IMG/VR virus record: IMGVR_UViG_3300035524_000014
Source: a virus
Strand: one strand, 5' to 3'
Length of the DNA stretch: 64,000 nt
Every line of letters begins with the position of its first letter. The first letter of the stretch is position 1. Positions 2,413 to 40,242 of this stretch are shown piece after piece. A program made the position numbers and the translations under genes. A model generated the notes under the pieces. It saw only the letters and a list, made by a program, of their open reading frames with translations, searched no databases and was not told the DNA's origin.

Positions 2413-2488
2413 TGGGGCCGGATGGGGGAGTTGAACCCACGGCAAAAGGTTTACAAAGCCCCCGCTCTACCCGCTGAGCTAATCCGGC
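2413..2488 (-). tRNA. tRNA-Thr (anticodon UGU)
   Basis: A 76-nt cloverleaf. Acceptor GCCGGAT/ATCCGGC, D arm GCTC-AGCGGGTA-GAGC, anticodon loop TTTGTAA, T arm GTGGG-TTCAACT-CCCCC, CCA encoded. The anticodon stem is weak (two G-T pairs and one C/A mismatch) and the T stem has one mismatch. Confidence 0.75.
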
Positions 2489-2874
2489 TGAAATTTTATG
2501 ATATAGAATCCCCGCCTATTCTACATCTAAGGACTCCCTATCAGGCCCACGTCCTTATCCCTTTATTACACCCATCAAGCCTTTGTAGTACAATCCGGCT
2601 GAAAATGTGGAGCCGCGTTGAGGACTTTAACCCCGCACACATTGCTCATTTATTCTCGTCCTTTTCTTTTTGAATAAAGGTTGAAATTAAAAATCGTTTA
2701 TTAAATAGTAAATCTATTATATTCTCTATAGGTTTTTATTACGGATTTATTAAATATTTTTCTTTTTTGTTCATGGGTTAACTTTCTATTTTCTTTAATA
2801 AAGAATTTTCCAATCCTTATTATATGGATATTCTAGTTCTATTCTCATAAAAACCTCCAATAAATTAAGTTGAT

Positions 2875-2967
2875 TGGGCCTACCGCACGGAATCGAACCG
2901 TGGCTAACCGCTGATCTGGCGTTCGAGCTTATAAGACTCGTCGTGCTTCCAATTACACTACGGTAGG
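2875..2967 (-). tRNA. Atypical 93-nt tRNA with a long extra arm and an apparent UAU anticodon
   Basis: Acceptor CCTACCG/CGGTAGG, D arm GTGT-AATTGGAA-GCAC, anticodon stem CGAGT/GCTCG with loop CTTATAA. A 21-nt extra arm AACGCCAGATCAGCGGTTAGC, T arm CACGG-TTCGATT-CCGTG, discriminator C, CCA encoded. Confidence 0.7.
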
Positions 2968-2987
2968 TAATTAATCATATCGGAGAT

Positions 2988-3016
2988 ATTCTACCACTTT
3001 TTACATAGTTTGTCAA
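2988..3016 (-). promoter_or_regulatory. Sigma70-like promoter in front of the 93-nt tRNA
   Basis: Reverse strand reads CTTGACAAA, with TTGACA (3011-3016), 17 nt, then TAGAAT (2988-2993). The tRNA 5' end lies 21 nt downstream. Confidence 0.7.
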
Positions 3017-3057
3017 GTAATATTATTTCAAACAGCATGTCAAGAAATTTGTTATTC

Positions 3058-3139
3058 TAGCGGCGGCGGGAGTCGAACCCGCATGGTATAAAACCGAGGG
3101 GGCTTAAACCTCTTGTGTTTGTCGTTTCACCACGCCGCT
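3058..3139 (-). tRNA. tRNA-Leu (anticodon UAA), type II, no encoded CCA
   Basis: Acceptor AGCGGCG/CGCCGCT, anticodon arm AGAGG-TTTAAGC-CCCCT (one A/C mismatch). Variable arm CGGTTTTATACCAT, T arm GCGGG-TTCGACT-CCCGC, discriminator A followed by GAA. It is collinear with my recollection of E. coli tRNA-Leu(UAA). Confidence 0.85.
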
Positions 3140-3247
3140 AGAAATTTAGGTTTAAGGAAATACACGGAATAGATCAAACCTAAAACCATCTATCCGGAAC
3201 GCTTCGTTTTCAGGCTATTGCCACGGTAACTAAGCCTAACCTTTTTT

Positions 3248-3276: not shown

Positions 3277-3430
3277 CCTTTTCTTTGAGGAAAAAAGACA
3301 TTTCTTCAACACTCCCATCTTGACAAACATTGACCACCAATCCTCGGTTTTTATATTTGTTGTTTACGTAATCTACCACAACATTAAAAACTTCATCTTC
3401 AGTTAGTGTAACCAGAATTTCCTCTTTCAT
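3263..3430 (-). CDS. Hypothetical 55-aa protein (below the ORF-track cutoff)
   Basis: AAAGGAGG lies 6 nt upstream of ATG 3430. Product: MKEEILVTLTEDEVFNVVVDYVNNKYKNRGLVVNVCQDGSVEEMSFFLKEKVDKE*. A promoter lies immediately upstream. Confidence 0.6.
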   Translation of the reverse strand: MKEEILVTLTEDEVFNVVVDYVNNKYKNRGLVVNVCQDGSVEEMSFFLKEKVDKE

Positions 3431-3459
3431 CCTCTTCCTCCTTTGTTTAAGTTGAACCT

Positions 3460-3488
3460 CTTATAGCAAATCTATTTATGTTTGTCAA
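3460..3488 (-). promoter_or_regulatory. Sigma70-like promoter for the 55-aa ORF
   Basis: Reverse strand reads TTGACA (3483-3488), 17 nt, then TATAAG (3460-3465). The leader ..TTCAACTTAAACAAAGGAGG is shared with the next promoter cassette. Confidence 0.65.
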
Positions 3489-3664
3489 GATGTTTTTTTA
3501 TTTTTCTTAGGAAGGTCATGTTTCCCGTTGAAAATATTGTCTCTAAGGAAATCTCCAGCATCGTAGAGACCCAGTCTATTTGCTACTTCCCACAGATATC
3601 TAAGTTGAACATCGAGGGATTCCTGACTTTGGCGCATTGGAGGAAGTATCTCAATGTCAATCAT
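3485..3664 (-). CDS. Hypothetical 59-aa protein (below the ORF-track cutoff)
   Basis: AAGGGG lies upstream of ATG 3664. Product: MIDIEILPPMRQSQESLDVQLRYLWEVANRLGLYDAGDFLRDNIFNGKHDLPKKNKKTS*. Its TGA stop is embedded in the next TTGACA box. Confidence 0.6.
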   Translation of the reverse strand: MIDIEILPPMRQSQESLDVQLRYLWEVANRLGLYDAGDFLRDNIFNGKHDLPKKNKKTS

Positions 3665-3694
3665 TTTTTAACCCCTTTTGTTTAAGTTGAATGT

Positions 3695-3723
3695 CGTATA
3701 CTAAAACTATGTACGTTTGTCAA
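3695..3723 (-). promoter_or_regulatory. Sigma70-like promoter for the 59-aa ORF
   Basis: Reverse strand reads TTGACA (3718-3723), 17 nt, then TATACG (3695-3700), followed by leader ..TTCAACTTAAACAAAAGGGG. Confidence 0.6.
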
Positions 3724-3730
3724 GGGATTT

Positions 3731-4066
3731 TTATATTTGTTGTAGTTGTTTTTTAAGTGTATCTATTTTTTTCTTTTTTTTACGTTTTTCATACTCTATT
3801 TCTTTTTCTATAGTACGTTTATATTCATCATAATTATTAATAAAATTAGGGTCTTTCTCTTCTGCTGTGTTATATATAAGTATTTCTTTAATAAAATAAT
3901 CCTTGTTTTTAGATTCAGACCACTTACATCGTCTACCCATAATACCGGGTCGATAATCCATATATTTAATTGCTTCTTTATATGTAGTAAATGCGCAAGT
4001 AAAATTGGACGAACCTCTTCCTTCTACCATGTCATCCTGTTCGTATACTGCGTAAATTGTGGTCAT
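3731..4066 (-). CDS. Hypothetical protein with a lysine-rich C-terminus
   Basis: A 111-aa ORF packed tightly after the primase gene. No motif recognised. Confidence 0.6.
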   Translation of the reverse strand: MTTIYAVYEQDDMVEGRGSSNFTCAFTTYKEAIKYMDYRPGIMGRRCKWSESKNKDYFIKEILIYNTAEEKDPNFINNYDEYKRTIEKEIEYEKRKKKKKIDTLKKQLQQI

Positions 4067-5217: not shown

Positions 5218-5754
5218 TTATTTTACTAATTTTTTATTTATACGCTCAAAACATATTTGTGTGGGCAGTAATTTAGAACAAACGTAAACACTGCTGAAAG
5301 GAGGATTAAGTGAAGGCTTTTGATCCTCATAATTTTTAAAATATGCGACCCTTCTATTTAAATAAAGAATTTCAAATTCATTTTCCTTAAACATTGAAAA
5401 TCTTTTTTCGCTTTCAAAAAGACCGGCTACCCCTACTAACATAGCGAACGGAATTTCTAGTTTAAATAAGTAATCCAATACATCTCCTTTGATAGAGTAT
5501 GGAGGATTAGATACAATACAATCACAATCAGGAATAGATATATTAAAGAAATTCTGATTGTCACATATATGTGTATGAATAACAACGAACCCCTCTTCTT
5601 GTAATACCTTTACGAACCAACTTTCCTTAGTATCAAAAGGACACCAAATAGTAGTAAACTTTTTATTTTTTAAATAATTAATGATAGGAAGCACCGCATA
5701 TTTTGGTGTGTAAAATTCATCATTCTTACTATTAGCAACCAAATCTAGTTTCAT
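5218..5754 (-). CDS. DNA amino-methyltransferase (NPPY motif, probably N6-adenine)
   Basis: N-terminal DEFYTP motif and catalytic IVSNPPYS. Confidence 0.75.
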   Translation of the reverse strand: MKLDLVANSKNDEFYTPKYAVLPIINYLKNKKFTTIWCPFDTKESWFVKVLQEEGFVVIHTHICDNQNFFNISIPDCDCIVSNPPYSIKGDVLDYLFKLEIPFAMLVGVAGLFESEKRFSMFKENEFEILYLNRRVAYFKNYEDQKPSLNPPFSSVYVCSKLLPTQICFERINKKLVK

Positions 5755-7413: not shown

Positions 7414-8722
7414 ACTGACCTTTAGTGATATCCATGATTTCTTTGATGGTGTAGGTTTCCTTCAGTTCACCTTGTGCAGCCACGAATTGCTTTGTGCCGA
7501 GAGCACACGCCCCGGTGATCACGCGGTAGGCTTCAATGGCTTGCTGAAAGGTGAATTCGTGGTCAAGAGCAAGACCTCTGTAATCACTTTTGTCTCTGTC
7601 TGAGATTTTGTAGATCAGGTCTTCGCGGGCTTCCCGAATGGTCGAACCGTGTGCATAGCGGCCTTCGCCGTCAGTCACAATATACGAGGTTTCGGGTTTT
7701 CCGATCTGCTTGACCTTCCAGACATTATCACGCTTGTTGATAACTTCGGAAAAGATCCCATCTACCAGAATATACCTGCCTTCCTGCCAAGTCAGCATAT
7801 CAGGAACTTTTCTGTTAATATGGTCGGTTTCCGTGATACATGTGTTTCGGAGGGCAATTCCCCTACCAACAGTCAGATTATCGGGTAGTTCCGTGATGTT
7901 TGTTCCTTCGAGGTCAAGAAAACCTCCGACAGTCAGATTGTCGGGCAGTGCCGTGATACCTGTGTTTTGGAGGTAGAGATTCCATCCGACGGTCATATTA
8001 TCAGGTAGTTCCGTGATGTTTGTTCCTTCGAGGTCAAGCCCACCACTAACAATCAGATTATCGGGCAATTCCGTGATGCCTGTGTTTCGGAGGTTAAGAT
8101 CTCCGCCAACAGTAAGATTATCGGGCAATTCTGCGATGTTCGTGCTTTGGAGGTCGAAATCACCCCCAATAGTCAGATTATCGGGCAACTTCTCGATGGG
8201 TGTGTTTCTGAGGTCAAGCCACCCCCCAACAGTCAGGTTATCAGGCAGTGCCGTGATGCCTGTGTTTCGGAGGGCAATTCCCCTACCAACAGTCAGATTA
8301 TCAGGCAATTCCGTGATGCCTGTGCCTTCAAGGTTAAGAAAACCTCCGATGGTCAGGTTATCGGGCAATTCTGCGATGTTCGTGCTTTGGAGGTCGAAAT
8401 CACCCCCAATAGTCAGATTATCGGGCAGTTCCGTAATGCCTGTGTCTTGGAGGCAGAGATTTTCTCCAATAGTCAGATTATCGGGCAACGCCATGATGTT
8501 CGAACCCCGGAGGTCAAGAAAATCTCCAATAGTCAGGTTATCGGGCAACTTCTCGATGGGTGTGTTTCTGAGGTCAAGCCAACCACCAATAGTCAAGTTG
8601 TCGGGCAGCGATGTGATGTCCAAACCCCAGAGGTCGATATCTCCGTCCAAATTGTACTTAGCATTTCCAACAATAAGGTAATTACCTTCTACATAAGCAA
8701 CCGTTTCATTCTTCTTGGACAT
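7379..8722 (-). CDS. LRR-like tandem-repeat protein, paralog C (full length)
   Basis: Thirteen repeats of ..LPDNLT(V/I)GGxLxLxxTxIT.. followed by a conserved C-terminal domain (..ETSYIVTDGEGRYAHGSTIREAREDLIYKISDRDKSDYRGL..). AAGGAG lies 8 nt before ATG 8722. In-frame alternatives are ATG 8728 and TTG 8746, the latter being the ORF-track start. Confidence 0.85.
   Translation of the reverse strand: MSKKNETVAYVEGNYLIVGNAKYNLDGDIDLWGLDITSLPDNLTIGGWLDLRNTPIEKLPDNLTIGDFLDLRGSNIMALPDNLTIGENLCLQDTGITELPDNLTIGGDFDLQSTNIAELPDNLTIGGFLNLEGTGITELPDNLTVGRGIALRNTGITALPDNLTVGGWLDLRNTPIEKLPDNLTIGGDFDLQSTNIAELPDNLTVGGDLNLRNTGITELPDNLIVSGGLDLEGTNITELPDNMTVGWNLYLQNTGITALPDNLTVGGFLDLEGTNITELPDNLTVGRGIALRNTCITETDHINRKVPDMLTWQEGRYILVDGIFSEVINKRDNVWKVKQIGKPETSYIVTDGEGRYAHGSTIREAREDLIYKISDRDKSDYRGLALDHEFTFQQAIEAYRVITGACALGTKQFVAAQGELKETYTIKEIMDITKGQYGHDAFVEFFA
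7835..8645 (-). repeat. Thirteen tandem 66-nt LRR-like coding repeats in paralog C, with embedded exact 70-nt and 41-nt duplications
   Basis: Thirteen LPDN units can be counted in the translation. 8118-8187 equals 8358-8427 exactly, and 8181-8221 equals 8541-8581. Confidence 0.9.
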
Positions 8723-14048: not shown

Positions 14049-14819
14049 ATGAATTTTTCTACCTCAGAAGACAAGAAAGGACTGTGGCCCCCAAAGGTCG
14101 GTCAGTGGGTTAAGGCATTAACCCCTGCCGGGAGTGACTACCTACTAGGAGTAGTGAAGAAATTGCATTATCACTCCAGATGGAGTAGCTTTTGGAATCA
14201 GTTGTTTGAGGACTTGAAGTATATAACTCTCATAGGCACGGATCAACGAAGCCATACTTATGCTGTTTCTAACGTCTTCTCTGTCAAGAGGTCTGAAATT
14301 CCTACCGTCAGACCTGTTATGACAAAGAGTGGCCGCGAGATAGACAAGTATAGCAACGTCGTTTATGAAAGACTCCGCTTGATACGGGACTTGCAAGCAT
14401 ATTTATATGCAACCAAATTATACTTTGACAGGGAATTTTTTGCAGTATGGAAAGGAAACGCAGATAGAGACGAATCTAATTTTGACCTTAAAGGGTGGGC
14501 TTTGTTTAAAGTAGTCAATGGAAGGGCTAAACGCATCACTTTGAAAGTGAATGTACCTTCCATTCACTGCGTTGATATGACTCTGAAAGATATTGTGATC
14601 GAATCATACCGGGATGTGGATAAGCTTTATGCGTTGGAATCTAAATGTGACTTGTATACGATGAGCAATGAAGTCCCTATGTTTTACATTAGAAAGGTAA
14701 AAGTGTACGCCGAACTCATAAAAATTCGACGAGCCTATATTCCTGCTATGCAAAAGCTCCCTTTGGAAACATATTATCCGCAAGACACCTATGAAACATT
14801 TGGGTTTAGGAGGAAGTAA
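14049..14819 (+). CDS. Hypothetical protein
   Basis: A 256-aa ORF with AAGGAGG upstream. Its stop overlaps the start of the radical SAM gene (TAATG). Confidence 0.6.
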   Translation: MNFSTSEDKKGLWPPKVGQWVKALTPAGSDYLLGVVKKLHYHSRWSSFWNQLFEDLKYITLIGTDQRSHTYAVSNVFSVKRSEIPTVRPVMTKSGREIDKYSNVVYERLRLIRDLQAYLYATKLYFDREFFAVWKGNADRDESNFDLKGWALFKVVNGRAKRITLKVNVPSIHCVDMTLKDIVIESYRDVDKLYALESKCDLYTMSNEVPMFYIRKVKVYAELIKIRRAYIPAMQKLPLETYYPQDTYETFGFRRK

Positions 14820-15523
14820 TGAAAGAACTTTTCCTAAACATCACCAACATATGTCCGAACTCATGTTCTTTTTGTTACAATTCAGGAATACACTATCAGG
14901 ATATGACCTCTCATTTCCTTGAGCAAATACTTTCTACAATTGAACCAGACATAAAAAAGGTGACTTTCATAGGAGGTGAGCCTACTATTCACCCTGAAAT
15001 ACTCACGCTATTGGGAATAGTTAAGGACTATGGAATGAAGACAATCCTATGGACCTCTGGTACTTTCGAGGTTGGGCACCTGCTAGCAAAGACCGATGAA
15101 CTTCGAGTGAGTCGTAATGGCTTCTCAGACGAGCACTGTTCAGTTATTCTAGGTAACCCATGCCTTTCAAGAGTTACGCTCCGACAGTATATGAAAGAGA
15201 CAAACCTAGTAATCACATGTATTCCGGGTCTTGGAGGTATTACTACAGAGAAATTTTTCTGGAAATGGTATAACTACTACTCCGAGTGTTCACCTGCAAA
15301 GTTTCTTATACTTCCAGTTAACTCTGAAGACCCTAGTCTAGTTTATTTTGGTAAATCACTTACAGATACTATTCGTCCGAACCTCCCTAATAATGTGTTT
15401 GAGGAGATAGACTACGAATCGGATATGCGCCCCGGTTGGAATGATTACTATGCCGTAGGAGATAAATTATTCAGGTCATATACTCAGGGAAACATAACAG
15501 AACTAAGAAAAGTTATACTATAA
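14819..15523 (+). CDS. Radical SAM domain protein (minimal, function unknown)
   Basis: CPNSCSFC (CxxxCxxC) at residues 12-19, followed by VTFIGGEPTIHPE. Confidence 0.7.
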   Translation: MKELFLNITNICPNSCSFCYNSGIHYQDMTSHFLEQILSTIEPDIKKVTFIGGEPTIHPEILTLLGIVKDYGMKTILWTSGTFEVGHLLAKTDELRVSRNGFSDEHCSVILGNPCLSRVTLRQYMKETNLVITCIPGLGGITTEKFFWKWYNYYSECSPAKFLILPVNSEDPSLVYFGKSLTDTIRPNLPNNVFEEIDYESDMRPGWNDYYAVGDKLFRSYTQGNITELRKVIL

Positions 15524-36826: not shown

Positions 36827-37301
36827 AATTGAAATATATTATCACGATAAAGACCTCCCCAGGATTGAGCAGATTGAAGTGGGTAATTGGATTGATCTTA
36901 GGGCATCGAGCCTTAAAGTAATCAGTTCAATTCTAAACAACAAATATGAAGTGTCATTATCTAGTCCGTTTAATTATATTGCTGGAATGACGATTATGGT
37001 CAACCTCGGCATCTCTATGAACATTGGAAACATGGAGGCACACCTAGTTCCTCGTTCTTCCACTTTCAAGAAATACGGGTTGATTCAGACTAACCACATG
37101 GGAGTTATCGATTCTTCTTATTGCGGACAAGATGATGTCTGGTGGATGCCGTGTTATGCCCTCAAACCTGGAACTATCCACTACGGGGACCGGATTTGTC
37201 AATTCCGTCTTGTAGAACCTATGGGAAAGGTTGAAATTAAAGAGGTAGAGAGCCTTTCTTCTCCTAGTCGTGGAGGATTCGGTTCAACAGGAAGTTCTTG
37301 A
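36819..37301 (+). CDS. dut: dUTPase (trimeric type)
   Basis: GVIDSSYCGQDD (motif III) and C-terminal SRGGFGSTG (motif V). ATG 36819 overlaps the previous gene. Confidence 0.85.
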   Translation: MNKIEIYYHDKDLPRIEQIEVGNWIDLRASSLKVISSILNNKYEVSLSSPFNYIAGMTIMVNLGISMNIGNMEAHLVPRSSTFKKYGLIQTNHMGVIDSSYCGQDDVWWMPCYALKPGTIHYGDRICQFRLVEPMGKVEIKEVESLSSPSRGGFGSTGSS

Positions 37302-37321
37302 TAAAATTTAACAAAAATAAC

Positions 37322-37350
37322 TTGACTTATCGGTTGATTTTTGATATAAT
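37322..37350 (+). promoter_or_regulatory. Consensus extended -10 sigma70-type promoter for the nrd operon
   Basis: TTGACT (37322-37327), 17 nt ending TTTTGA, then TATAAT (37345-37350). Confidence 0.75.
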
Positions 37351-37369
37351 GTGAAATGTAATTACTTAG

Positions 37370-37413
37370 GGAGTAGTGTTTTGGAATGGGCTTTTACCGT
37401 TCAACACTACTCC
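37370..37413 (+). promoter_or_regulatory. 5' leader hairpin of the nrdD transcript (11-bp perfect stem)
   Basis: GGAGTAGTGTT, a 22-nt loop, then AACACTACTCC, followed by TTAATTGTCTTTATTT. It starts roughly 13 nt after the predicted transcription start. Confidence 0.5.
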
Positions 37414-37459
37414 TTAATTGTCTTTATTTAACCTACTAATTATCTATAAAGGAATTTCT

Positions 37460-39292
37460 ATGACTAATCGGACTGAAGTTAGAATTGATGCTCGTAAAAT
37501 TATAAATGAATACATGGAGGACGGAGATGTAGCGAAAGAAAATGCTAACCAGAATAAAGGTCCGTCTGGACTTCTTATGGCCGTAGGTAGTGAAGGACTT
37601 AGGCGCAATACTCTGAAGGAAATGGTAGAAGAAGGATTTGGGGAGTTGGTAGAAATGCACAATAAAGGAAAGGTGCATCTCCACGATCTAGGGATGGGCA
37701 CCCATACCCCCTACTGCTGTGGTAACTCTCTTCCTGATCTTTTGAATAATGGTATAGAAGTTGGTATTAAAGCTGCTCCTGCAAAACATTTTAATTCTGC
37801 TATTAATCATATGGTTAATTTCATTGGGAGCATGTCTAATGATTATTCAGGCGCACAAGCATTTAACGGGGTTGATACCTATCTAGCTCCATATGCTTAT
37901 AAACGATATCTTGATTTTAAAAAAAGCGGATGTGCTCCTGCAACTGCTTTCAAGCTCACAAGAGAAGAAGTTTATCAAGCGATTCAGAATTTTGTATTTC
38001 ATTTGAATTTTAATACCAGATATGGCTCACAACCCCCCTTCGGGAATATTACTCTTGATATTACCGTACCGCCAGATATGAAAGATCAAGTTGCTATGGT
38101 CGCAGGAAAGCCTATCAAAGAATTTTATGACTACACAGTTGACGGGGTTCGTGTAAATAATCACACCCACGCTGATCTTTGGGAATGGCAACGTCTTGTT
38201 GCTGAAGCCTTTATTGATACTTTTAATGAGGGAGATGCTAATGGGGTTGGTTTTACTTTCCCTGTTTTGACTCTTAATGTTGAAGATACTTTCTTTGATC
38301 ACCCTCTTACAGATAAGATTTGTGAGTTTACCGCGAAGTATGGTATTCCTTTTTTCCAGAACTTTGTAAATGGTGTAGGCGGCGGGGAAAAACTTAGTCC
38401 ACAGGATACTCGCGCTCTTTGCTGTAGGCTGAGTTTGTCTCTTAAAGATATTGCAAAATCTACAGGCGGTCTTTTTGGTAATAGTGATGGAACGGGCAGT
38501 CTTGTTGTTGTGACCGTAAACCTTCCCTATCTGGCATGTGAATCTAGGGGAGATATTAAGCGTTTCTATAAAGACTTGTATGCAACCATGGAAAAGATCA
38601 AAGAATACCATATTTGGAAACGTGGAAAAGTAGTAGACGCCTATAATAAGGGTTTTCTCGCTCTTTCTAAAAAAGCTCTTCCTAAAGGTTACGACACTTT
38701 CTTTACTACGGTTGGATTTATTGGTACGTGGGAATGTGTAGAAATGCTCACTAAGGATGAGCAATCTCTTCTCACAAAGGAGGGTCTTGCCCTAGGAAAA
38801 GATATTCTTCAAGGAATGGTTGATAAAACTAAGTCTTGGATGGAAGAATATAAAATGCTTTGGAACGTGGAAGAGACTCCTGCGGAAAGTGCTTCTTATA
38901 AACTTGCTAAGAAGTCTCTGAAACAATTCCCTAACATTGTTCATCGTGGTCTTAAAAAAGCACCATATTTTACTAATGGATGTAATATTCCGGTTGAGTT
39001 TCAAGATGATCTCTCTCAAGTTCTTAAAGTTCGCACAGTGCTACAGCCTATTCCAACTGGTGGAACGGCAACTCACTTCTATATTGGTGAAGAGTGGTCC
39101 GTGGAACAAACAAAGGAATTTATCAGGATGATTTGTAATACACCTATTCCTTATTTTTCTATCTCTACAGTGTATTCTATTTGTCCTATTTGTGGGTATC
39201 ACGTAGGAGCACACTCTGTATGTCCAAATAATCATACAGAAGAAGAAATTAATGAATTGAGAAAAACAAACCCCGAACTTATTATTGAGTAG
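37460..39292 (+). CDS. nrdD: Anaerobic ribonucleoside-triphosphate reductase large fragment (NrdD without the glycyl-radical segment)
   Basis: Thiyl-radical loop ALCCRLSLSL and C-terminal zinc site CPICG...CPNNH. No RxxGY motif follows. AAGGA lies 6 nt before ATG 37460; the ORF-track start at 37418 is a TTG. Confidence 0.85.
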   Translation: MTNRTEVRIDARKIINEYMEDGDVAKENANQNKGPSGLLMAVGSEGLRRNTLKEMVEEGFGELVEMHNKGKVHLHDLGMGTHTPYCCGNSLPDLLNNGIEVGIKAAPAKHFNSAINHMVNFIGSMSNDYSGAQAFNGVDTYLAPYAYKRYLDFKKSGCAPATAFKLTREEVYQAIQNFVFHLNFNTRYGSQPPFGNITLDITVPPDMKDQVAMVAGKPIKEFYDYTVDGVRVNNHTHADLWEWQRLVAEAFIDTFNEGDANGVGFTFPVLTLNVEDTFFDHPLTDKICEFTAKYGIPFFQNFVNGVGGGEKLSPQDTRALCCRLSLSLKDIAKSTGGLFGNSDGTGSLVVVTVNLPYLACESRGDIKRFYKDLYATMEKIKEYHIWKRGKVVDAYNKGFLALSKKALPKGYDTFFTTVGFIGTWECVEMLTKDEQSLLTKEGLALGKDILQGMVDKTKSWMEEYKMLWNVEETPAESASYKLAKKSLKQFPNIVHRGLKKAPYFTNGCNIPVEFQDDLSQVLKVRTVLQPIPTGGTATHFYIGEEWSVEQTKEFIRMICNTPIPYFSISTVYSICPICGYHVGAHSVCPNNHTEEEINELRKTNPELIIE

Positions 39293-39295
39293 GCT

Positions 39296-39847
39296 ATGTC
39301 AGATAAGACCATTTATTCATATTGCACCGGGATGGTGGACTTTCCTAATAAATATGCGTTTACGATTTATTTTAGTGGGTGTAATATGGATTGTTCGTTC
39401 TGCCACAATAAACACATTCTAACCTCTGATGCTAATTATTCATTTGAAGAAATATATGAGGAGATAAAGGCGTTAAATAAAATTGTTCCTGATATTGGGG
39501 TTGTTCTTTCAGGAGGGGAACCTACCTGTAATCGTGATTTTGAAAAAGCTCTTAATGCTTTTGAGGACTACCCGCTTTCCTTGCATACAAACGGAATGAA
39601 CATTGTGCCGGAATATGAAGGCAATATTGTTCTTGGATTGAAACCGTTTAACACGCGAACATATATAAAAACAATATCTAACTTTCTAATATATCATGCA
39701 GATTTTTCCGATACTTACTATAGGGAGGTTCGATATGTAACAGGAGTTGATGATGTTGAGTATGGTAAAGTTATCACTGAATTGCAACCTATTATTGAAA
39801 AAACAAATTGGAATCTTTGTAGTGTAGAAGATTCTCGAAAGGAGTAA
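39296..39847 (+). CDS. nrdG: Anaerobic RNR activating enzyme (radical SAM)
   Basis: FSGCNMDCSFCHN (CxxxCxxC) and VVLSGGEPT. Confidence 0.8.
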   Translation: MSDKTIYSYCTGMVDFPNKYAFTIYFSGCNMDCSFCHNKHILTSDANYSFEEIYEEIKALNKIVPDIGVVLSGGEPTCNRDFEKALNAFEDYPLSLHTNGMNIVPEYEGNIVLGLKPFNTRTYIKTISNFLIYHADFSDTYYREVRYVTGVDDVEYGKVITELQPIIEKTNWNLCSVEDSRKE

Positions 39848-39851
39848 TGCT

Positions 39852-39980
39852 ATGAAAGTTAAATGCAAGACCTATACTAAGATTGTTGGGTACTGCCGTC
39901 CTGTTGATAACTGGAATGTGGGTAAGAAGCAAGAGTTCAAGGATCGTAAGTTCCTTTCTATGAAGGGAAGCTCTATGTAA
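39852..39980 (+). CDS. Stand-alone 42-aa glycyl-radical peptide corresponding to the NrdD C-terminus
   Basis: AAGGAG lies 8 nt before ATG 39852. MKVKCKTYTKIVGYCRPVDNWNVGKKQEFKDRKFLSMKGSSM* matches the NrdD C-terminal consensus R(I/V)xGY..P...(F/W)N.GK..E...R. Confidence 0.75.
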   Translation: MKVKCKTYTKIVGYCRPVDNWNVGKKQEFKDRKFLSMKGSSM

Positions 39981-39989
39981 AGTAAACAA

Positions 39990-40020
39990 AGAGGGGAGAA
40001 GTAAAACTCCCCTCTTTTTA
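39990..40020 (+). terminator. Intrinsic terminator after the nrd operon
   Basis: AGAGGGGAG-aagtaaaa-CTCCCCTCT followed by TTTTAAAT. Confidence 0.75.
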
Positions 40021-40035
40021 AATAGGGATTAGTGT

Positions 40036-40242
40036 ATGGGAAAGACGTATAGAAATAAAGATTACACGCTGTTTGGTGGAATTGGGGATGGTAAAGACGG
40101 AAGCACCCTTTCCTCAAAAAAGGCATATAGAGAATATAAGGAAATGCGCCGAAGAAAAGAACGAAGAAAGGAAAAACAACTCATGCGTGAAGGAAAGGAT
40201 ATTCCTGTTTCTAAAAAAGATGATAAATATTGGTGGTGGTGA
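40036..40242 (+). CDS. Small highly basic protein
   Basis: A 68-aa ORF containing KEMRRRKERRKEKQLMREGK and ending WWW. Confidence 0.5.
   Translation: MGKTYRNKDYTLFGGIGDGKDGSTLSSKKAYREYKEMRRRKERRKEKQLMREGKDIPVSKKDDKYWWW

Follow-up and report, generated by a model that had tools for sequence, protein, structure and literature searches.

A phage nrdD gene that lacks the glycyl-radical region and a separate 42-residue tail encoded after nrdG: a predicted two-subunit class III ribonucleotide reductase

Class III (anaerobic) ribonucleotide reductases (RNRs) are treated as α2 enzymes with the radical glycine in the α chain (RNRdb paper; PMC9669993), and in the literature that we searched the glycyl-radical enzymes (GREs), class III RNR included, are described as single chains. 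The one known exception is GrcA/YfiD of pyruvate formate-lyase (PFL). YfiD can supply a radical glycine to cleaved PFL, and both YfiD and Y06I of phage T4 can undergo activation by the activase and fill a barrel devoid of its Gly loop (PMC8683613); according to the same paper, published in 2021, only two PFL spare parts have been validated. As for Pseudomonas aeruginosa, the literature speaks of 'nrdDG', and only the class II enzyme is called 'exceptionally' split. Here we analyze a stretch of viral DNA of 64,000 nucleotides (nt) (IMG/VR record IMGVR_UViG_3300035524_000014; the whole stretch is called the window below), where an nrdD gene without a radical-glycine motif is followed by nrdG, the gene for the putative activase, and then by a short open reading frame (ORF) that encodes an NrdD-like glycyl-radical segment.

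Both the ORF listing and the raw sequence contain three co-oriented ORFs of 610, 183 and 42 codons, in the order nrdD core, nrdG, tail. Their features are as follows.

37460..39292, + strand: nrdD core (large subunit), 610 residues; class III RNR barrel and predicted zinc ribbon, without the glycyl-radical loop.
38420..38431, + strand: thiyl-radical finger loop C321-C322-R323-L324, double-Cys type, read from the sequence.
39182..39235, + strand: zinc ribbon C575-P-I-C578 ... C588-P-N-N-H592 (C575-x2-C578 ... C588-x3-H592), a predicted metal site, likewise read from the sequence.
39236..39292, + strand: C-terminal extension of the core (TEEEINELRKTNPELIIE) and stop codon, equivalent to the initial stretch of the linker between ribbon and Gly loop in fused relatives.
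39296..39847, + strand: nrdG, putative radical-SAM (S-adenosylmethionine) activase, 183 residues, with Pfam Radical_SAM and Fer4_12 domains; CxxxCxxC at 39380..39403.
39840..39844, + strand: Shine-Dalgarno (SD) sequence AGGAG, 7 nt ahead of the tail ATG and abutting the nrdG stop codon (39845..39847).
39852..39980, + strand: tail subunit, 42 residues, MKVKCKTYTKIVG13YCRPVDNWNVGKKQEFKDRKFLSMKGSSM; Gly13 codon at 39888..39890.

We consider it very probable, from the evidence presented below, that the tail is made as a protein and works with the core in trans, so that the two polypeptides would form an obligate two-subunit class III RNR.

The core matched Pfam NRDD (PF13597) with 415 bits (cut-off 26.2) over model positions 1-537 of 562, and TIGR02487 NrdD with 335.9 bits, above the cut-off of 326.35. 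The columns of C321-C322-R323-L324 were invariant in alignments A1 and A2; within the zinc ribbon, predicted to be a Cys3-His variant, C575, G579, C588 and P589 were invariant or almost so in A1. Both the CCRL loop and the C-terminal zinc site claimed in a preliminary description of this DNA could be read in the sequence, the former at C321-C322-R323-L324. An AlphaFold2 model of the core alone reached a pLDDT of 89.8 and a pTM of 0.89, the finger-loop region being the least confident, and its 36 best Foldseek matches were all solved class III RNR (NrdD) structures (TM 0.66-0.76). By model scores, finger-loop cysteines and fold, the core is an NrdD; what it does not possess is a radical glycine in the same polypeptide.

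The core terminates 18 residues past H592 (the preliminary estimate was about 20), and a search with the tail profile revealed no radical-glycine motif (R-x-x-G-Y) in 37460..39292. The sole G-Y of the region belongs to 'CPICGYH', inside the first zinc knuckle. We rejected this as a hidden radical motif because fused relatives have the equivalent knuckle ('CPKHGYL') plus the true motif further downstream. The C-terminal extension, with a clade consensus of HTEExIxxLxxxxPxL, is conserved as protein right up to the stop codon, and AlphaFold2 predicted a helix at residues 594-603 (block-mean pLDDT ~88-93).

The tail aligned to positions 532-560 of the 562 in NRDD, Gly13 included (E = 2.3e-7; 30.3 bits, cut-off 26.2), and to positions 550-579 of 581 in TIGR02487. 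The core covers NRDD positions 1-537; core and tail are therefore complementary halves of one model, whose final positions align to the small ORF, as the preliminary description had expected of an SD-preceded 42-codon ORF resembling the NrdD C-terminus with its radical glycine. Judging from the Pfam and TIGRFAM matches, the tail is the C-terminal domain of NrdD, and its radical motif would be K-I-V-G13-Y. No Pfam family other than NRDD matched it at E ≤ 1, hence it is not PF01228 Gly_radical; for tails from Pseudomonas and from the candidate phyla radiation (CPR), too, NRDD was the sole Pfam match at E ≤ 0.01. The tail has been called as a gene and is present on 7 contigs. Only 4 nt separate it from nrdG, whose product has C29-x3-C33-x2-C36 as its cluster motif. 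The tight coupling, with the tail SD sitting at the nrdG stop, suggests that activase and substrate are made together; nrdG lies between core and tail in all examined relatives of the window's clade.

The 46 nearest large-subunit clusters (P0002-P0047, metagenomic, 37-80% identity) all stop shortly after the zinc ribbon and lack the motif, and tail-less ends characterize 113 of the 120 nearest large-subunit homologues. The presence of a tail was checked in those relatives for which flanking DNA existed, and a separate tail ORF follows nrdG in every such relative of the clade. At 80% identity to the window core, locus L002 has a 38-residue tail and an intein in the core; at ~50%, L005, L006 and L061 have an HU gene and a further ORF, besides, between core and nrdG; the order core-nrdG-tail recurs in L007 and L008 (~51%) and in L009-L011 (44-45%). 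The survey of homologous phages thus found the split kept at 80%, ~50% and ~45% identity.

Between the window and L002, the tails share 79% identity as protein and 77% as DNA, with dN = 0.125, dS = 2.26 and dN/dS = 0.055, a ratio that is approximate because dS is saturated, as it is for the N-terminal half of nrdD. In all relatives checked, the tail possesses an SD and an ATG of its own, and purine-rich SD-like sites precede the ATG in L002, L005, L011 and L067 too. Relative to nrdG, the tail is in different frames in the window, L002 and L005. JGI and Logan assemblies, which are independent of each other, contain the identical window proteins. Strong purifying selection has thus preserved the split throughout a deep phage clade. 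Megablast retrieved no GenBank phage matching the locus; the nearest deposited phages by protein (~35% identity), MT835493 and Oceanotoga phage UFV02, have a fused NrdD and are uninformative on the split.

Mobile elements were observed in some relatives. In L002 (4001-6829), the intein (Pfam Intein_splicing on P0002) interrupts the Cys-Cys finger loop (RAMC / ... HN / CRL), and a LAGLIDADG-like ORF lies just 5' of nrdD at 3301-4008. Inteins or HNH domains were also found in several further relatives.

When the ends of split and fused proteins were aligned, the cut always lay in the segment that connects the zinc ribbon to the short strand ahead of the Gly loop, a linker that in fused enzymes ranges from a few residues to ~40. 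The window clade belongs to a subtype with a second knuckle of the form 'C-x3-H-[ST]-E-E', after which comes a linker of ~20-25 residues; L031 and L095, which are fused, have the same second knuckle and an intact linker running into '...PCE[IV][FY][AS]RV[IV]GYY'. The window core stops within this linker, and the window tail begins four residues ahead of the conserved Cys.

Elsewhere the cut ends show peculiarities of their own. Three tails (L124 5721-5858, L101 1804-1947, L145 5818-5961) result from a cut within the second zinc knuckle, with the last Cys ligand on the tail ('KCGKETEVY', e.g. MKCGKETEVY...); since the tail keeps this ligand, the zinc site may be completed across two polypeptides. 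In L145 'CD' is duplicated at both cut ends. Heptad-like amphipathic helices are present on both cut ends in phages (L032, L037, L044, L064) and in spirochaetes (L119, L149, L152, L156), for example ...EKLTELENKKKAILEE on a core and IEKIDEQIQQITAKLN on a tail; such pairing suggests that a coiled coil tethers the tail to the core.

The split is the majority state among the nearest relatives of the enzyme and is common in cellular genomes, and hence not an isolated phage oddity. Two surveys bear on this, one of 78 related viral loci and one of the 80 nearest species-representative genomes of GTDB. Among the viral loci, separate tails occur in several unrelated phage lineages beyond the window clade (L013, L027, L032, L036, L037, L039, L044, L064, L067). 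In the cellular genomes, 42 had a separate tail and 36 a fused NrdD, with 2 assigned to neither. The split genomes include Pseudomonas brassicacearum, P. petroselini, P. silensiensis and other Pseudomonas, the complete genome of Microbulbifer harenosus, and also CPR/Patescibacteria, DPANN archaea, Alphaproteobacteria and spirochaetes. The cellular order is core-tail-nrdG (38 loci) or core-tail with no nrdG found (6 loci); the phage order is mostly core-nrdG-tail (12 loci). At no surveyed locus was a fused NrdD accompanied by an additional stand-alone tail.

Two phage loci depart from this compact arrangement. In both L036 and L039 the core ORF ends at 5686; in the former the tail motif starts at ~752, some 5 kb upstream of the end of the core, and in the latter the tail ORF lies at 7655-7861, ~2 kb downstream. 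The stretch examined contained no detectable nrdG in either case.

Stand-alone tails are abundant in sequence databases. A phmmer search with the 42-residue tail against 1.84 billion representatives returned 1856 matches at E ≤ 1e-3. Among the best 150, 148 were 39-120 residues long (median over all 150, 61) and 144 started with Met, and the Gly had a median position of ~21; the short length, the Met start and the position of the Gly indicate that these are stand-alone genes, not fragments from contig ends. The two long proteins among these best matches (P0220, P0271) proved to be unrelated low-complexity repeats and were discarded, and P0221 and P0222 contain short internal duplications, probably assembly artefacts. 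Each tail ORF looked up was present on tens to hundreds of independent contigs, and by exact look-up some of 49-70 residues, among them those of ~50 residues from cultured Pseudomonas and Microbulbifer, are already in RefSeq/UniRef (e.g., WP_087090474, WP_008091449, WP_138237134) under the names 'anaerobic ribonucleoside-triphosphate reductase', 'oxidoreductase' or 'hypothetical protein'.

A neighbour-joining tree of 141 large subunits implied ~12 changes between the split and fused states, a figure that is indicative only, the tree being a rough one (BLOSUM distances, midpoint rooting); split or re-fusion has evidently occurred many times. The split does not simply go with an aerobic lifestyle, a possibility that we considered and rejected, as strictly anaerobic CPR are split and aerobic Actinobacteria fused.

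The tails of spirochaetes/Treponema are 184-210 residues long (L119 3313-3867, L152 5604-6236, L156 5796-6395) and consist of an N-terminal helix, the Gly-radical motif and a C-terminal CPxC domain. The latter matched Pfam Glutaredoxin in the two tails tested (L119 and L156), above the cut-off in L119 only, so the radical carrier appears to be fused to a possible reductant. Many cellular tails (L124, L135, L145, L160, L162, L092 and others) end in Cys pairs (CAC, CDC, CGC, CSC) reminiscent of the cysteines that act as a C-terminal redox shuttle in class I and II RNRs.

How could such an enzyme work? The three genes would encode a class III RNR made of two polypeptides, plus its activase. The core stops in what is, in a single-chain enzyme, the surface linker to the buried Gly loop; the tail, translated from its own SD directly after nrdG, would supply the short strand, the K-I-V-G13-Y radical loop and then a conserved surface segment, RPVxNWNxGKxxEFxDR. 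NrdG, with its [4Fe-4S] cluster and SAM, would abstract a hydrogen from Gly13, on either the free or the core-docked peptide. Inside the barrel, the Gly loop would face Cys321/Cys322 and exchange the radical with the Cys loop at each turnover, as in single-chain NrdD. The glycyl-radical domain of NrdD is highly mobile; it can leave the barrel and can turn fully disordered (PMC11226230). A possible advantage would be that oxygen damage costs only a cheap, replaceable peptide. We infer the assembly in trans, the activation by NrdG and any such advantage; what the data show are the complementary domains, the gene structure, the conservation and selection, the wide distribution and the lack of detectable joining signals.

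Several details do not sit easily with a two-subunit enzyme of this kind. The window tail has K three residues before the Gly, where R is near-invariant. A profile built from 22 stand-alone tails aligned T. maritima NrdD 613-645 (around RIVGY) weakly, at E = 0.08, and a phmmer search of PDB sequences with the single 42-residue tail matched no chain. The best NCBIfam match of NrdG was TIGR02495 NrdG2, whose 76.7 bits are under the 131-bit cut-off. To these the saturation of dS between the window and L002 must be added.

Alternatively, the pieces might be joined into an ordinary single-chain NrdD, through removal of an intron that holds nrdG, through trans-splicing, through a programmed frameshift or readthrough, or through a split intein. 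Group I introns, inteins and homing endonucleases are indeed frequent in phage nrdD genes (PMC3653736; PMC12880540), and inteins occur in relatives of the window nrdD itself. However, Rfam detected no intron family over the window at gathering thresholds, nor at E ≤ 1 in 37250..40100, where the one hit was a sub-threshold small RNA match (15 bits vs a 60-bit cut-off); no intron-like RNA was detectable that would point to the RNA processing named by the preliminary description as a possible refutation. The protein-level conservation of the extension up to its stop, together with the separate SD and ATG of the tail in all relatives checked, also speaks against joining, as does the DNA between the pieces, which is a conserved nrdG and in L005 an HU gene and another ORF as well. 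Frameshift or readthrough is impossible with nrdG intervening and with relative frames that differ among the window, L002 and L005, a difference that also precludes any shared recoding signal. With regard to a split intein, the core ORF has no intein, HNH or endonuclease domain by Pfam, and the 18-residue extension and 4-residue leader of the tail are far too short to be intein halves. The distant tails of L036 and L039 are hard to reconcile with any of these routes, and we regard joining as extremely unlikely. A decaying nrdD, in which a truncated pseudogene is followed by an ORF that is fortuitous or a relic, or else a sequencing or assembly artefact, would have a precedent in fragmented phage nrdD genes of unclear status, such as that of phiAS4 (PMC3653736). 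Nevertheless, this explanation is close to refuted: the split persists down to ~45% identity, the tail is under strong purifying selection, and the JGI and Logan assemblies yielded the same protein, which excludes sequencing error as the cause and leaves no room for an artefact or a pseudogene. Moreover, the catalytic residues and the predicted fold are intact, a whole nrdG between the halves cannot come from an artefact, and stand-alone tails abound elsewhere.

Finally, the tail might mainly be a GrcA-like spare part for an oxygen-cleaved, full-length NrdD of the host, not a partner of the phage core. Phage T4 Y06I is such a part for the host PFL, and spare parts for other GREs have been speculated upon (PMC8683613). 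Against this, the phage core, which has no radical glycine of its own, could not be active without the tail; the whole clade retains core, nrdG and tail as a single operon; the tail comes directly after the truncated core in 44 cellular split loci; and the fused loci surveyed have no extra tail. We therefore hold a mainly spare-part role to be very unlikely, while a secondary role on the host enzyme is conceivable. The preliminary description had proposed action in trans, likened to that of GrcA: the split and the need for trans action are supported by the conservation, the selection and the lack of joining signals, but the comparison to a spare part does not hold for a partner that is itself truncated.

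The two-subunit reading of the window locus can be extended to a broader proposal, namely, that class III RNR has repeatedly evolved into a two-component GRE, made of a stable core and a dissociable, replaceable radical peptide of ~40-70 residues. The many independent splits at one linker point in this direction, and so do the tethering solutions, which are specific to single lineages (paired helices at the cut ends, a fourth zinc ligand on the tail, fusion of the tail with a glutaredoxin-like domain). The peptide would then be a consumable protein cofactor charged by NrdG, loosely like the radical-harbouring subunit of class I RNRs, and a core whose peptide had been hit by oxygen could be re-armed, in a built-in version of GrcA repair. 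We offer this generalization tentatively, deeming it possible though rather doubtful. Were it true, the in-trans design itself would have been selected in phages, CPR bacteria, DPANN archaea, spirochaetes and Pseudomonas.

Within the window, the operon is bracketed by one promoter-like site and one terminator hairpin, which enclose nrdD core, nrdG and tail.

37322..37350, + strand: promoter-like site, TTGACT, 17-nt spacer, TATAAT, with TG ahead of the -10; 11/12 consensus positions, the best in the region.
37366..37417, + strand: hairpin in the nrdD 5' leader; minimum free energy -30.1 kcal/mol vs a shuffle mean of -15.8, z = -5.2.
39988..40018, + strand: terminator-like GC-rich hairpin at the end of the operon; -18.5 kcal/mol, z = -3.8.

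The promoter-like site is a consensus match only, and shuffled sequence yields a roughly equal number of promoter-like matches overall. The leader hairpin, which sits between this site and the SD of nrdD and matches no Rfam family, could be an attenuator or a processing/stability element. The terminator reported after the operon corresponds to the hairpin at 39988..40018, for which the scan lists the - strand; A and T runs flank its stem on either side.

The window, which corresponds to the 83.9-kb IMG/VR contig UViG_3300042257_000094, has a G+C content of 38% and contains a single NrdD core, a single tail and a single nrdG, no further copy of any of them being detected in its 64 kb. A dUTPase gene lies immediately 5' of the operon. 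Right after the terminator, at 40036-40242, there is a strongly basic ORF of 68 residues (MGKTYRNKDYTLFGG...), which has no Pfam match and is kept in the 80%-identity relative (L002 7588-7791). A second radical-SAM ORF (14819-15523, 234 residues, Radical_SAM and Fer4_12 domains), distant from the nrd operon, resembles NrdG in the cluster-binding region only. A cluster of three tRNAs is found at 2413-3140 on the - strand (Thr-TGT, Ile-TAT and Leu-TAA, with Ile-TAT unusually long at 93 nt); these were the only Rfam matches across the window at gathering thresholds.

A full-text literature search, with subscription-only papers outside its reach, found no publication on a split class III RNR. As far as is searchable, split NrdDs are thus abundant in databases and automatically annotated, yet undescribed and uncharacterized. 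The preliminary description was aware of no earlier account of the arrangement, and no paper was found; the small ORFs, on the other hand, have already been listed by annotation pipelines.

If the two-subunit reading is true, the accepted subunit picture of class III RNR changes, including in tractable organisms such as the fluorescent Pseudomonas. The tail would be a minimal natural substrate of the activase, offering a direct handle on how the buried Gly loop reaches NrdG and gets back into the barrel, and the idea that a replaceable radical peptide cuts the cost of oxygen damage would become testable. For annotation and surveys, length filters or the requirement of a Gly motif will take split NrdDs for truncated or inactive proteins, and it is easy to overlook the small ORFs.

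Compared with the single-chain NrdD and NrdG of phage T4, T. maritima, P. copri and S. thermophilus, the window system has the same barrel fold and finger loop, a predicted zinc ribbon, a radical-SAM protein that is a putative activase of their kind, and the Gly-loop and RPVxNWNxGK sequence of their C-termini. The single-chain enzyme, however, is described as an α2 protein with the radical glycine in α, whereas in the window the chain is cut between ribbon and Gly loop and the radical part is a gene product of its own.

GrcA/YfiD of E. coli and Y06I of phage T4 resemble the window tail in its proposed mechanism only: each is a small stand-alone radical-glycine protein, presumed to undergo cognate activation and to complete a barrel that lacks a Gly loop (PMC8683613). 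GrcA, however, is homologous to the C-terminus of PFL and has ~127 residues, whereas the 42-residue tail is homologous to the C-terminus of NrdD and does not belong to the GrcA family. Furthermore, GrcA rescues a full-length enzyme after cleavage by oxygen; because the partner of the window tail is truncated by design, not cleaved by oxygen, the tail would be an obligate subunit, not a spare part.

The split class II enzyme of Pseudomonas aeruginosa, NrdJa/NrdJb, likewise has a C-terminal module encoded by an adjacent gene as a second polypeptide (PMC5704485; PMC9669993), but NrdJb is a Cys-rich re-reduction domain of 150-220 residues that bears no radical and belongs to another RNR class and chemistry. 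Another parallel is nrdA-a/nrdA-b of Aeromonas phage Aeh1, split by mobE, an RNR gene in separate pieces that is functional without splicing (PMC3653736). In phage RNRs split by mobile elements, an intron, intein or homing endonuclease intervenes, whereas the spacer in the window is the gene for the enzyme's own putative activase; and, unlike those splits, the window-type split cuts the same structural linker in many unrelated lineages, cellular genomes included.

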